Shown here: positions 4,320 to 33,008 of the stretch, one piece after another
How the letters are laid out: the number at the start of each line of letters is the position of its first letter
How positions within the stretch are numbered: position 1 is the stretch's first letter
Source of the DNA: a virus
Reading direction: 5' to 3' (one strand)
DNA length: 64,000 bases
Virus record (IMG/VR): IMGVR_UViG_3300013738_000004
Coordinates: 1,931 to 65,930 of that record
Translations under genes and position numbers: made by a program
Notes under the pieces: model-generated
Database searches by the model: none
Told to the model about the DNA's origin: nothing
What the model saw: the letters and a program-made list of their open reading frames with translations, nothing else

Positions 4320-5443
4320 GGTTGCTCCTCGGATTTCTGAGGCGACTTCCGCACCTCCAACGACGAAACCTTCCCCCTGCACTCGACCACGATCCACGTG
4401 ATTTCGCCATCTGCGCTAACAGTGAGATTGCGAACACGAAGGCCGAGATTGCGGCGGAAACAGGCGTCGATAGCGTCGTCGGTGTTGAGGGGCTGCGGGG
4501 TGGCGGCGCGGTCACATGCATTGTGAGGATTCTTGCATCGCGGGCACGCCGTAACGAATGGATTGCATTCTGCGGTCGGATCGAATGCCGTGGCTTGAGA
4601 GGTGGCGCGGGCTTCGTCCAGTTTTTTGCGAATCTCTTCGATAGCGGCTTGAACGACAGGCTTCGTGTCATTGAACCAATCACATGGTCCGCCGTCTTCC
4701 TTGTTTTTACCGCTGGCACCACTCATGAATGCTGTGTAGGCAATGTCGATGAGGCGCGGCGTTAGGCGATTGTGCAAGTCGTCCTGAAGCACGTAAGCCA
4801 ATAGGCCGTCGAATGTGCTTTGCCATGCCAACGGGATAGCTGCGCGCTCATCGGGCTGCGCTGCCGCATGGCAAGCATCGCACTGGTGCAGATGCCGACG
4901 TGTTGCGTCGCTCGTGTGCCACGGATCCATCGTTTTCGCATCGCAGAAATCACACGGCAATGGCTCATCGCTCGGCGCTGCCGCATCTGGGGCGACAGTG
5001 GCGCGCGTCATCGCGTCATAGACGTCGCTCCATCGGAATTGAGCGGGCAAAGGGTGGGCATGCTTGAAGGTTTCAAAGTATTTTTGCGCCGCTTCGCCCA
5101 TGGAAGCCTGATAGGCACCAGGCGAAAGAGCGTGACGATAGCCAGTCTCGTACGCTTGTTGCAATTCGGCGTTATCCGGGGATCGCTGGCTGTCCACGAC
5201 GGGAGCGGCGTAGAGCTTGCTGCCAATCTTCAGCCCGTGTTTCTCTACAATGGGCGCGATCGGACCGCAGCCGGCGTAGAAGAGTTGCCAGTCGGAGCCG
5301 ATGACCGCGACGGGCTCCGGTGCTCCCGCATCGGAAGGAAGAGCGGCGAGAGCAGCCCGCAGTGATTTCGCGATTGCGCCATCGCCTTCCGTTTCGAGGT
5401 CGGCGGCGATCTTCATCAGTTCGTTGTAGTGGCTCTGTTTCAT
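4316..5443 (-). CDS. Mosaic phage early protein with CxxC clusters
   Basis: 375-aa ORF; CDFCD..CDAC and CPRC motifs; Ala/Pro linkers. Confidence 0.7.
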   Translation of the reverse strand: MKQSHYNELMKIAADLETEGDGAIAKSLRAALAALPSDAGAPEPVAVIGSDWQLFYAGCGPIAPIVEKHGLKIGSKLYAAPVVDSQRSPDNAELQQAYETGYRHALSPGAYQASMGEAAQKYFETFKHAHPLPAQFRWSDVYDAMTRATVAPDAAAPSDEPLPCDFCDAKTMDPWHTSDATRRHLHQCDACHAAAQPDERAAIPLAWQSTFDGLLAYVLQDDLHNRLTPRLIDIAYTAFMSGASGKNKEDGGPCDWFNDTKPVVQAAIEEIRKKLDEARATSQATAFDPTAECNPFVTACPRCKNPHNACDRAATPQPLNTDDAIDACFRRNLGLRVRNLTVSADGEITWIVVECRGKVSSLEVRKSPQKSEEQP

Positions 5444-5458
5444 CGTTTCCTCTATTCG

Positions 5459-5677
5459 TTATGCCGCAATCGGCTTGCCCGTGAGCAGCCAACCGATGTT
5501 CGTGCCGGGAAGCGCCTCGACTATCTTTACGATCGAATCGAGCCCGGGCTTATAGACGCCACTCAGGTAGTGCGAGAGCATCGATTGTGAGAAGCCGGTG
5601 CGCTCGCAGAAGGTCGTCAGCGTGATCTGTTGATGCTGCTCAATGGCAATGCGTAGGCGTTGGCCGAAGGTGCTCAT
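5459..5677 (-). CDS. XRE-family HTH protein
   Basis: FGQRLR...TLTTFCERTGFSQSMLSHYLSG..KP. Confidence 0.88.
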   Translation of the reverse strand: MSTFGQRLRIAIEQHQQITLTTFCERTGFSQSMLSHYLSGVYKPGLDSIVKIVEALPGTNIGWLLTGKPIAA

Positions 5678-12947: not shown

Positions 12948-13475
12948 CTACGCTTCCAGCGCGCCCTTTTGCATCCCTCGCAACATGGATAGCTTCGCAA
13001 TCGCATCCATGTTTTCCTTGCGCTGGGCGTCCGTCAGTTGATCTTGACGAACGTTTTTGAGCGTCAGCGCGGCGCGCTTGTATGCCTTCGCTGCTTCGCG
13101 CTCAAACTTCTCCTGGGCTAGCTCAGTTTGCTCGCCAGGGGGCACAACACGGTAGCCTTCGCCGAATACAACGCTCAGAAAAATCTGGTGATTTTCCAGA
13201 AGTTCAGCGCGGAAAGCCTCCATATTGCGAAGCCATTCAAACTGACGCTCCTGAAAATCTTCCGCTGTCATCGGGCCAGCGATTGGTTCCATGCCGAAGT
13301 GCATTTCGAGCCACGACTTGCTAACCACATCACCTTCGCCGAAACCCTCGTCAAAGAAGTCCTTTACGGCCTGCCTCCATTCGGGGAACAGGCTGACATT
13401 TTCTTCTTCATCAAGGCCGCATTTACGCAGGCCTTCGCGGGCGCTTTGAATTGCCTCCAATACGTCTCTCCTCAT
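12948..13475 (-). CDS. Protein coupled to the RAMP gene (putative accessory/effector)
   Basis: ATG 13475 lies 2 nt after the RAMP stop; GGAG RBS; helical C-terminus. Confidence 0.75.
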   Translation of the reverse strand: MRRDVLEAIQSAREGLRKCGLDEEENVSLFPEWRQAVKDFFDEGFGEGDVVSKSWLEMHFGMEPIAGPMTAEDFQERQFEWLRNMEAFRAELLENHQIFLSVVFGEGYRVVPPGEQTELAQEKFEREAAKAYKRAALTLKNVRQDQLTDAQRKENMDAIAKLSMLRGMQKGALEA

Positions 13476-13477
13476 AA

Positions 13478-14047
13478 TCACTCCACCGTGACCGAGAAGC
13501 GGCCAAAGCGCGGACGGTACTCGCACACGCCGATGAGTGCGCCAGCGTCAGCCAGTGTCTTTTTGACCTCGGACATGTTCAATACGTCCGGGTTGAATGC
13601 AACCTCGAGCTCGCACGCCCATTCCGAGAACACGGGGCGGTAGCGCATCACCTTGGCGGTGCCAACCTTCACGCCTCGGCAGTCCACAAACTGGGTATCT
13701 TCCCAAAGCTTTTCGGGCGTCTTCGGACCTGCATGGATCAGCTTTGCGCGATCCGTCAGGACTAGCGCGCCTCGCGTCCATGCGGTGCCGAGCTTTTGGA
13801 GCTTCGCTCCAGCCTTGAACGTGGCATCGAAGTTCGCTCCGGGCACGTAGATGCCAGTCGATTCGCTGAAATAGATGCCGCTCAGGAATTCCGATTTGGC
13901 GATGGCAAGATGGTCGTCGTCCGTTTTCTTGCGCTTGCCTGTCAATTCCTTATGTGCTTTAGTTTCTGGCAGAAGCGGATTCGCCAGGCGATCCGAGTGC
14001 ATCATGAGGGGCGACGTGCCAACGATTTTCAATTTCAAAACTTCCAT
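13478..14047 (-). CDS. Stand-alone RAMP/Cas7-like (RRM-fold) RNA-binding protein; putative Vipr-type guide-binding protein
   Basis: N-terminal LKIVGTSPLMMH, central GIYVPGANF (cf. IPGSS of Csm3/Cas7 RAMPs) and C-terminal G-rich loop GALIGVCEYRPRFGRFSV; no other cas genes nearby. Confidence 0.75.
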   Translation of the reverse strand: MEVLKLKIVGTSPLMMHSDRLANPLLPETKAHKELTGKRKKTDDDHLAIAKSEFLSGIYFSESTGIYVPGANFDATFKAGAKLQKLGTAWTRGALVLTDRAKLIHAGPKTPEKLWEDTQFVDCRGVKVGTAKVMRYRPVFSEWACELEVAFNPDVLNMSEVKKTLADAGALIGVCEYRPRFGRFSVTVE

Positions 14048-14060
14048 GATGGTTTCCTTG

Positions 14061-14623
14061 TAGAGAACATCCCATACCCGGCCTTACCACGACATACCGC
14101 TCCCAAGCGAAACCTATCGGAGCCAACCGTTGCCGTAGTCTGCCCAGCCAATGATGCAAGCGCATCGGGAAAGCCGAAGCCTTCCCACTGCGTTCGCAGT
14201 CCGAAACAGAGCCTGCCTCGACACACCGCGCCTTGATGCAACGTGCCCTGCCACTGGGCGCTATTCGCACCGCACTGGTTTGCTCCAGTGCGCTGAAAAC
14301 AGCGGTTGCCTCGCCTCGCCTCACCTAACCGTGCCTAACCTGGGCTCGCCTAACCACCCCCAGATCACCACCGATGCTATTCGCACCGATTAGCCTTTCG
14401 GCTAACCGCTGAAAACAGCCCATGCCTTGACTTGCCTTGCCACGCCTGGCCTGACCCCGACTTGCCGCGCTATGCCTTGCCGCGTCTGGGCTTGTCACAC
14501 CAAACCGTGCCACTGGCGCTATTCGCACCGGCAAACCCAAAGGCTTGCCACTGAGAACAGTCCATACCCCATCAAAGCTCACCTCAGCTCGACATACGGA
14601 GTCATGCCACTCCATGCCTCACC
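14061..14623 (-). ncRNA. Five GGY-NN pentamer arrays separated by conserved hairpins (putative guide-RNA locus)
   Basis: Plus-strand NN-RCC 5-nt periodicity at 14069-14149, 14208-14252, 14306-14365, 14417-14511, 14559-14623; GCTATTCGCACCG exact at 14260, 14376 and 14518, each followed by a hairpin and CTGA(A/G)AACAG. Confidence 0.8.
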
Positions 14624-14629
14624 GCTTTC

Positions 14630-14773
14630 TCATGCCCGATCCTTCCACGAAAGTGTCCGCGCACGCTGACTCCGGTCTGGTATGTCCCGGCGTTCATCGG
14701 CGCCTTGGAAAAAGAGAATGATCAGGTAGTCAAGGAAGGCGACGATCAGCGCCCAAATTAGCCAGGTTGGCAT
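14630..14773 (-). CDS. Small membrane protein (47 aa)
   Basis: Own translation MPTWLIWALIVAFLDYLIILFF...; GGAG RBS; ends just before the first array. Confidence 0.55.
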   Translation of the reverse strand: MPTWLIWALIVAFLDYLIILFFQGADERRDIPDRSQRARTLSWKDRA

Positions 14774-15514: not shown

Positions 15515-15765
15515 TTACGCCGCCTGCCGCATCGCAACGCGGACCAGGCTGTTCTGAAGCTTCTCCTGCTGCTTCTTGCCGAAGTGCGGGGTGTACTTGC
15601 TGCGCGAGGCGCGGCGAACGTCGACATTCGGGGTCGAAGGTTGCGGCACGTAAAGCGTCTGACCGTTCGGCGCGAGAACCTTCTTTTGCACCGGGATTTC
15701 TAGGAAGTGAAGGTTGCGCTTTGCGAGGATTTCAGCGCGGTGCGTTGGTGATGTTTGCGGCTCAT
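15515..15765 (-). pseudogene. Frameshifted small gene (1-nt deletion or sequencing error)
   Basis: The coupled ATG (MSRKHHQRT) stops after 21 codons, while another frame continues RAEILAKRNLHFLEIPV...MRQAA* with no start codon; total length 251 nt. Confidence 0.5.
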
Positions 15766-16721
15766 GCTGCGTCCTTTTCTTCAGATTTCGTTTCGACCCA
15801 AAAGCCGGTCATCAGATTGATGGGCTTCGCTTTGGCAATAACGCGCCCGTAAACCGACCACTTCGGCAGGCGCAGTCGCAGGGCGGCAAAGATTCCATAG
15901 TCCTCACCGGCTTCGATGCCCAAACCGGCTTCGATGCCCTCACCGGCTTCGATGCCCGAACCGGCTTTGATGCCCCAACCGGCTTCGATGCCCGAACCGG
16001 CTTTGATGCCCTCACCGGCTTCGATGCCCTCACCGGCTTTGATGCCCGAACCGGCTTTGATGCCCCAACCGGCTTCGATGCCCGAACCGGCTTTGATGCC
16101 CTCACCGGCTTCGATGCCCGAACCGGCTTTGATGCCCTCACCGGCTTCGATGCCCAAACCGGCTTTGATGCCCCAACCGGCTTCGATGCCCCAACCGGCT
16201 TTGATGCCCGAACCGGCTTCGATGCCCTCACCGGCTTCGATGCCCGAACCGGCTTCGATGCCCAAACCGGCTTCGATGCCCTCACCGGCTTCGATGCCCA
16301 AACCGGCTTTGATGCCCCAACCGGCTTCGATGCCCCAACCGGCTTTGATGCCCGAACCGGCTTCGATGCCCTCACCGGCTTCGATGCCCAAACCGGCTTT
16401 GATGCCCTCACCGGCTTCGATGCCCGAACCGGCTTTGATGCCCGAACCGGCACGCAACGAAAATTCGATCTTGATTGAGCCTGTCACGCGAATCGATCCG
16501 GCGAACACGAAGCGCTTTTTCTCAAGCGTCCCGACTTCCAGCACATCATCAGTTTTACCGAAAGCGTTCAGCAGCCAGCACGCGTCGTCGAAACGATCGT
16601 CGTCGCAGAGCTTGTCGAGAATTTCCTGATACTCGCCGCCTTCCGGGAAATTGCGGAGGTACCACTCGTAGCCATCCGAACAGGGATGCTTTTCCTTCAG
16701 CAGTTCTTTGGTGATCTTCAC
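15762..16721 (-). CDS. Hexapeptide-repeat (AGxGI[K/E])30 beta-solenoid-like protein
   Basis: GTG start with GGAGAAG RBS; N-terminal domain KITKELLKEKHPCSDGYEWY. Confidence 0.85.
   Translation of the reverse strand: MKITKELLKEKHPCSDGYEWYLRNFPEGGEYQEILDKLCDDDRFDDACWLLNAFGKTDDVLEVGTLEKKRFVFAGSIRVTGSIKIEFSLRAGSGIKAGSGIEAGEGIKAGLGIEAGEGIEAGSGIKAGWGIEAGWGIKAGLGIEAGEGIEAGLGIEAGSGIEAGEGIEAGSGIKAGWGIEAGWGIKAGLGIEAGEGIKAGSGIEAGEGIKAGSGIEAGWGIKAGSGIKAGEGIEAGEGIKAGSGIEAGWGIKAGSGIEAGEGIEAGLGIEAGEDYGIFAALRLRLPKWSVYGRVIAKAKPINLMTGFWVETKSEEKDAA
15912..16451 (-). repeat. 30 x 18-bp coding tandem repeat
   Basis: Unit GCC GGT (TCG/TTG/TGG/GAG) GGC ATC (A/G)AA. Confidence 0.95.
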
Positions 16722-32932: not shown

Positions 32933-33008
32933 TGCCGGGTAGCTCAATTGGTAGAGCAGCGGGTTTTGATCCCGTTGGTTGCGCGTTCGAGTCGCGCTCC
33001 GGTTGCCA
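32933..33008 (+). tRNA. tRNA-Gln (anticodon TTG) with atypical acceptor stem
   Basis: 76 nt; D arm AGCTC..GAGC, anticodon stem GCGGG/CCCGT with loop TTTTGAT, T loop TTCGAGT, encoded CCA. Confidence 0.85.

Follow-up and report, generated by a model that had tools for sequence, protein, structure and literature searches.

Genes at the Locus

The DNA analysed here, hereafter called the window, is a stretch of 64,000 nucleotides (positions 1,931 to 65,930) of the virus record IMGVR_UViG_3300013738_000004. The complete record measures 70.5 kb with a GC content of ~0.59 and represents an uncultivated soil phage, whose terminase shares 67-68% identity with its counterparts in siphoviruses of Pseudomonas, Variovorax and Xanthomonas. 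In a search of sequencing runs, soil DNA metagenomes alone contained the phage sequence, in part, and the locus described below was absent from RNA runs, all runs with matches being DNA. In addition, a tRNA-Gln with the anticodon TTG is encoded at 32933-33008 of the window.

The locus lies on the minus strand and comprises an array of short periodic tracts (14069-14623), the gene vipr (13478-14047) directly downstream of it, and a candidate accessory (vap-like) gene (12948-13475) that is translationally coupled to vipr. The vipr gene encodes a RAMP-family protein of 189 aa, whose residues 1-188, namely its full length, match PDB entry 36pp_D, “SUSP1 Vipr protein” (E 2.7e-45), and which also matches phrog_4652 (E 1.4e-71). 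Homologs of Vipr were found in 132 phage records, and the protein encoded here is 42.6% identical, over its full length, to the Felixounavirus/SUSP1-like copies. The product of the 12948-13475 ORF belongs to phrog_5926 and had neither a Pfam family above threshold nor a PDB match; its homologs lie directly downstream of vipr homologs in the Pseudomonas phages Medea1 and LESphi2. These two were the only phages with such a gene beside vipr, in contrast to the SUSP1-like phages, in which none was found.

VIPR was first described in preprints of 2026, which outline a system of a Vipr protein and vrRNAs in which GGY and NN motifs alternate, with a tail at the 3′ end (10.64898/2026.04.26.720920); a companion structure paper is bioRxiv 10.64898/2026.04.26.720927. 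Several features by which such a system is recognised were found in the window. The locus has a RAMP-type Vipr gene, as judged by the PDB 36pp_D and phrog_4652 matches, and where at least four tandem GGY-NN (YNNGG) pentamers with variable NN are expected on the vipr strand, there are five tracts of 10-18 units. Each tract is followed by a structured 3′ tail with a three-hairpin consensus, and guides A, B, D and E reach an NN match of at least 80% at a skip of one base only. Furthermore, same-strand GGYNN tracts adjoin vipr in 21/21 related loci from Burkholderiales, Pseudomonas, Vreelandella, actinobacteria and others, indicating that the periodic tracts are not a product of chance; the tracts of related loci end with a like start of hairpin 1 (GGCAT GGGCT G....CAGC). 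On the other hand, the identical direct repeats of ~23-50 bp with contiguous spacers that define a CRISPR array were not seen, the array being built of 5-nt periodic tracts and ~52-nt tails.

Anatomy of the vrRNA Array

Each vrRNA is made up of consecutive GGY-NN pentamers and, after them, a conserved tail of ~52 nt, and is oriented in the same direction as vipr. The NN lists that the earlier note had given for four blocks, A to D, were all exactly reproduced by reading the minus strand in 5-nt steps, and a fifth tract, E, which that note had not counted, is also present at 14149-14069. The exact-GGY counts were 5/13 for A, 12/19 for B, 9/12 for C and 5/9 for D.

The guide tract of vrRNA A (14564-14623) has 12 units with a degenerate scaffold, and its NN pairs are GA AT GT AT TC AT GA GA GA TT GG AT. 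Its tail (14512-14563) contains the hairpins ACTG/CAGT, GGCAAGCC/GGTTTGCC and GGTGC/GCGCC. The guide tract of vrRNA B (14422-14511) has 18 units and 36 informative bases (AC TT GT AA CA GC AA AT GC AA GG CA CA GT AA AA AA AT), and is followed by a tail at 14366-14421 whose 3′ limit is approximate. The guide tract of vrRNA C (14306-14365; tail, 14253-14305) has 12 units as first read (TG GT TA GA CA TA AC TA GA GA GA AA). Although this list was reproduced, its first unit, ATCTG, is not of the GGY type and probably lies outside the guide, so that C probably has 11 informative pairs.

The guide tract of vrRNA D (14203-14252) has 10 units, AG AC GC AA GC GT GA AG CT TC, which is two units (GCTCT and GTTTC) more than previously read, and the D tail begins with GGACT at 14202-14198. 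The omission of a final, supposedly constant CT from the target codes was appropriate for A, B and C, where it belongs to hairpin 1 of the tail (GCTG-loop-CAGC), but not for D, where it is a guide pair. The D tail (14150-14202) forms ACTGCG/CGCAGT, GGGAAGGC/GCTTTCCC and GATGC/GCATC, with co-varying stems. Finally, vrRNA E (14069-14149), placed between the D tail and the vipr start codon, has 16 units, of which about half carry an exact GGY, and a 1-nt insertion (register slip) at 14129. Only the start of its tail is present (GGGAT GTTCTC), and it merges into the ribosome-binding site of vipr.

A second array of five guides with homologous tails was found at 4950-5623 of a 5.6 kb soil viral contig (L043), and the NN pairs of the two arrays differ in four of the five guides. 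The vrRNA A tail is 96% identical to one of the tails in L043. A consensus from nine tails, four of this array and five of L043, consists of three hairpins with 17 pairs, 7 of which show compensatory changes, mostly in hairpin 2, and it is hairpin 2 that varies among the tails of the array. No Rfam family matched the array. The 5 kb of DNA upstream of the L043 array is unrelated to this phage, suggesting an exchange of guide units or of entire arrays among phages. Note that the tails of L043 follow another order (C-like, A-like, a new one, B-like, D-like) and that a promoter-like TTGACA...TAAGAT lies directly upstream of its array. The five L043 guides had no match in ~470 kb of compared sequence.

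Decoding Rule and Nature of the Targets

According to the rule set out in the discovery preprint, every NN base-pairs with the target, successive pairs being separated by a single skipped target base, and natural VIPR targets are called at an ungapped NN match of at least 80% (10.64898/2026.04.26.720920). Our scoring followed the published one: public collections were searched with exact nine-pair seeds, and the rest of the guide was then scored. The one-base skip proposed in the earlier note agrees with the published rule, and matches arose at skip 1 alone. The idea that the blocks hold distinct, spacer-like target codes is supported by the B and A matches at skip 1, as controls gave none; a lack of excess over controls at every gap size, which the note had named as the result that would speak against its idea, did not occur. 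When the guides were compared with the 21 related vipr loci, no match was found.

Promoters had been suspected as targets on account of the AT-rich NN content, but the matched sites lie in frame within coding sequence, with the NN pairs reading codon positions 1-2 and the wobble position being skipped. The GC content of the NN pairs is 0.39, compared with 0.53 at codon positions 1+2 and 0.72 at position 3 of the phage's own genes; the AT-rich NN content is thus largely explained by the reading of codon positions 1-2. As for self-matches, guides A, B, C and E had no site on the 70.5 kb contig at skips 0-2, in line with the earlier inspection by eye, but guide D has one (16/18) in its own tail, as described below.

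Guides E and B Match Genes of Mobile Elements

The seed taken from the in-phase part of block E (pairs 2-10) gave more than 108 exact viral matches, compared with 0-10 for the other seeds. Read in frame on the opposite strand, its target gives RFTIAHELGH, the HEXXH box of ImmA/IrrE-type metallopeptidases, the matched genes being Peptidase_M78. The ten pairs matched 20/20 in all 80 of the fetched loci. Moreover, the four units 5′ of the slip extend the target frame as [FL]-V-L-H, and the extended guide matched 28/28 in 9 of the 80. Among 101 Burkholderiales genomes, the 14-pair pattern with up to three mismatches had 9 sites in 8 genomes, one with no mismatch and one with a single mismatch, while a reversed control pattern had none in the same 101; the perfect bacterial site (28/28) lies within a 300-aa Peptidase_M78 ORF. 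Since L043 has the same NN pairs in an unbroken register, the slip in the present array is a 1-nt insertion. Judging by guide E, a continuous target may still be readable by a guide in which one scaffold unit is 6 nt long. We regard the assignment of block E to the ImmA/IrrE box as very likely correct. The ImmA/IrrE family includes proteases that control the induction of prophages and ICEs. [quoted passage not shown]

For guide B, a seed of pairs 1-9 matched two viral contigs, among them a 32 kb provirus (L026). In the latter, the first 13 pairs match at 26/26 bases, and are followed by one extra codon and then by three further matching pairs, so that the ungapped score is 31/36. The site lies in frame in a 204-aa ORF with the NN pairs on codon positions 1-2, and the footprint corresponds to an invariant stretch, TTFVKQANIAxGHQQVNN, of a family of ~200-aa proteins whose function was not assigned. 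All family members seen have GHQQV, whereas the guide (G-CA-CA-GT) is one H/Q codon shorter, and this missing codon puts the last five pairs out of register. The score was 30/36 in an island of Polynucleobacter paneuropaeus, and overall B scores were 83-86%; in 13 GC-rich proviruses, the first 13 pairs matched at 22-25 of 26 bases. When 14 loci were fetched by protein homology and not by DNA pattern, B reached at least 75% at skip 1 in 13-14 of them, and in the same 14 loci skips 0, 2 and 3 as well as 200 shuffled B guides gave no sites at that score. We assign guide B to this island/provirus gene with high confidence.

A seed of B pairs 10-18 found three AT-rich matches that were judged to be due to chance, and the 13-pair pattern at four spacings had no sites in three genomes, a result that is uninformative, as Polynucleobacter was not among them. 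In its satellite-like layout, the P. paneuropaeus island (~8 kb; L028:4110-12300) combines genes for a P4-type integrase and a Toprim/DUF3987 primase with a few small ORFs. Metagenome contigs of ~6.3-7.7 kb were the source of many homologs of the B target. The islands may represent an undescribed family of satellite-like elements of freshwater Burkholderiales. In one GC-rich provirus, the gene of the B family has an antirepressor and defence-like cargo nearby. In a GC-rich provirus (L088:9097-12616), downstream of it come a Cap4-type nuclease-domain protein and an AAA/SMC-like ATPase, which look like defence cargo.

Guide A and an Acyl-Carrier-Protein Helix

Guide A at skip 1 decodes to [DE][IM]V[IM]S[IM][DE][DE][DE][FL]G[IM], the helix of an acyl carrier protein (ACP). 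A complete match (24/24) was found in a 76-aa PP-binding (ACP) ORF of a viral contig (L034), and 22/24 in a second ACP-like ORF with the motif DSLDTIEIVMSIEEEF, which was called ACP from this motif and not from Pfam. The contig L034 was rejected as the source of a real target. It is an AT-rich phage contig from another habitat with fatty-acid (lipid) desaturase genes, and on the grounds of its AT-richness and these genes we regard the match as a shared peptide. In bacteria, the full pattern with up to three mismatches matched 20/401 Burkholderiales genomes, with acpP as the sole match in each. These matches carry the housekeeping motif ELVMALE[DE]EFG[IM] and always have exactly three mismatches (21/24). 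The reversed pattern had no match in the 401 genomes, and skips 0, 2 and 3 gave no match in five of the matched genomes. Taken together, guide A was probably derived from an ACP-type sequence.

Such a sequence could belong to the host itself, and guide A would then act on acpP or another host ACP gene for host takeover or growth control. This reading would account for a single genome-wide match (0.875) at acpP in 20/401 Burkholderiales genomes, as against none for the reversed pattern, although Burkholderiales may not be the order of the host, and for the fact that no ACP of a mobile element from a comparable habitat was found. We nevertheless consider it improbable, because the acpP matches never have fewer than three mismatches, the silencing of an essential gene would be costly for a temperate phage, and the scaffold of A is the most degenerate of the guides (5/13 exact GGY).

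The state of that scaffold bears on a further explanation, that the array is partly a decaying relic in which A and E, with poor GGY, and B, which lost a unit, no longer work while the ancestral codes can still be read. Exact GGY is found in 5 of 13 units of A and in about half of those of E; E also has the 1-nt insertion that is absent from L043 and lacks a full tail, and the register of B is off by one codon relative to all the targets seen. Mutations of GGY abolish silencing in the assays presented in the discovery preprint (10.64898/2026.04.26.720920). However, the VIPR papers describe natural vrRNAs as often internally degenerate with variant unit types, and the occurrence of the same E pairs in two otherwise different arrays suggests selection. 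Decay of this kind is a minority view in our judgement.

Guide C and a Candidate Integrase Box

Seeds of guide C (pairs 1-9 and 3-11) had no matches in viral contigs. A metagenome scan with the C seed gave 26 matches, ~13 of them distinct, one of which lies on a 1.8 kb contig (L069) with a GC content of 0.56. Here guide C matches 23/24, which becomes 22/22 once the doubtful first pair is left out, and the site is in frame on GVYDQYTYDDEK of a tyrosine integrase with Arm-DNA-bind_3, Phage_int_M and Phage_integrase domains. The consensus of the integrase family at this site is GVEGVYD[RQ][HY]xYxxEK, which we take to be the catalytic-tyrosine region of P4-type integrases. The exact C peptide occurs in 2 of 121 family members, and the 11-pair pattern with up to two mismatches had no site in 101 Burkholderiales genomes. 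The assignment rests on one short contig, with 4-5 bases matched beyond the seed in a scan of a very large collection, and we favour the integrase box by a narrow measure.

It is also conceivable, if rather less likely, that chance, or convergence on widespread acidic or aromatic peptide motifs, explains some of the decoded targets, namely that of C and perhaps that of A. Of the ~13 distinct C-seed matches, one extends by 5/6 further bases, for which the overall chance is ~0.05-0.1, and the A seed also matched unrelated runs of the DIVISIDED type. Against this, the C site is in frame, on a soil contig of matching GC content and in the catalytic box of a mobile-element integrase, and the active site of a recombinase is a target class reported in a VIPR preprint (10.64898/2026.10.15.759431). 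As for guide A, the uniqueness of acpP in each genome, together with the absence of matches in controls, cannot be chance.

Guide D Matches the vrRNA of a Related Phage and Its Own Tail

A nine-pair D seed found L043. In the fifth vrRNA of L043, guide D scores 18/18 where the last repeat units meet the tail; the homologous site in the tail of D itself (14178-14203, minus strand) scores 16/18, which 0/500 shuffled D guides reached on the contig. The D-type seeds also matched L042 and L044, at sites that lie outside the reading frame of a primase-like ORF and were set aside as chance matches. According to Lopez et al., there are vrRNAs that target vrRNAs with the same repeat/tail footprint and with a self score lower than the non-self score (10.64898/2026.10.15.759431). 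On this basis, guide D is likely directed at the vrRNA junction of a rival.

Alternatively, guide D might be mainly autoregulatory: Vipr would act on its own D-tail site, ~130 bp upstream of the vipr start codon, and D would throttle read-through into E, vipr and the vap-like gene, giving negative feedback. The D self-site scores 0.89, exceeding the 0.80 cut-off for natural targets in the papers, and is placed between the upstream end of the array and vipr. No self-hits of at least 0.80 are described for the clades in the discovery paper (10.64898/2026.04.26.720920), so that the D self-site would be unusual. The self score above the usual cut-off makes autoregulation a live alternative, yet we hold it to be fairly unlikely: the site in L043 is the better one for D (18/18), the lower self score follows the pattern outlined for vrRNA-targeting vrRNAs (10.64898/2026.10.15.759431), and two mismatches may suffice to spare the phage's own DNA. 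A still bolder interpretation, in which the array goes beyond an anti-rival role, with D as an RNA-guided loop of self-regulation and A dampening host acpP, seems to us quite improbable. If true, it would extend VIPR from warfare between elements to self-control and host manipulation.

Proposed Mode of Action and Comparison with Known Systems

Returning to the rival vrRNA as the target of D, the panel of guides would be composed as follows: B for an island/provirus gene, E for the ImmA/IrrE motif, D for the vrRNA of a related phage, C perhaps for an integrase box, and A for an ACP-type gene. The minus-strand region 14069-14623 of the window is thus, as judged from its sequence, very probably a VIPR vrRNA array of five guides that are mostly aimed at other mobile elements. 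By homology to the SUSP1 system, Vipr protomers would polymerise on the RNA in such a way that GGY is hidden and NN is presented. Double-stranded DNA would in turn be bound by the NN pairs, which pass over every third base of the target, with a block of transcription as the result. The expression and processing of the vrRNAs, the binding of Vipr to them and the silencing are likewise presumed from this homology. Because the guides lie on invariant motifs with the skipped base at the wobble position, synonymous drift in a target would be tolerated and escape would need a change of a conserved residue.

VIPR as a kind of system is already known, and the present locus is a further, well-supported example of it. 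With Type II VIPR, as in Escherichia phage SUSP1 and a Pseudomonas fulva prophage, it shares a phage-borne small Vipr, GGY-NN guides with a structured 3′ tail, an array beside vipr, the one-base skip, and in-frame coding targets with the wobble base skipped. In contrast to Type II VIPR, the whole array lies upstream of vipr. The tail also differs, its consensus fold being three simple hairpins; a pseudoknot is reported in the VIPR preprints for tails of the SUSP1 clade.

With regard to targets, the main text of the VIPR preprints does not name the ImmA/IrrE box, ACP or tyrosine integrases. SUSP1 vrRNA4 is reported to target the active site of a satellite serine recombinase (10.64898/2026.10.15.759431), and the guides described here resemble it in lying on codons of invariant, catalytically important residues, where escape is costly; unlike vrRNA4, the candidate found here is a tyrosine (P4-type) integrase, known from one site. 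Guide D shares with the vrRNA-targeting vrRNAs the footprint on the repeat/tail junction and a self score below the non-self score, but its self score of 0.89 exceeds the usual 0.80 cut-off. The array also resembles class 1 CRISPR-Cas in its guide units, which are arranged in tandem and each combine a constant handle with a variable targeting part, in a protein of the RAMP fold, and in the existence of related arrays with common handles and differing targeting parts. However, unlike in class 1 CRISPR-Cas, no direct repeats flank contiguous spacers, no cas1/cas2 was seen near the locus, and the guide is noncontiguous, using 2/5 of the RNA bases and 2/3 of the DNA bases.

Beyond the E. coli and Pseudomonas clades, few sets of natural VIPR targets have been decoded. 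The published skip-one code worked directly on the raw sequence of an uncultivated phage and gave interpretable targets, and these targets speak for a placement of VIPR guides on invariant codons. The high self-match of D, the match of A to an essential host gene family and the scaffold insertion in E provide test cases for the tolerance rules of VIPR.

Sequences Upstream of the Array

A 47-codon ORF on the minus strand (14630-14773) precedes the array; the N-terminal half of its product is hydrophobic and begins with MPTWLIWALIVAF. Its TGA codon occupies 14632-14630, leaving a gap of 6 nt to the start of vrRNA A. Between the two, no promoter was called, and a sigma-70 promoter scan found none near the vrRNA array. 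Given the 6-nt gap and the absence of a called promoter, the array may share a transcript with upstream early genes. Farther upstream, within a long minus-strand ORF, an 18-bp tandem repeat with the consensus ACCGGCTTCGATGCCCGA occurs in at least 5 copies (15762-16721), and this repeat region is ~75% identical to genes of several Ralstonia phages.
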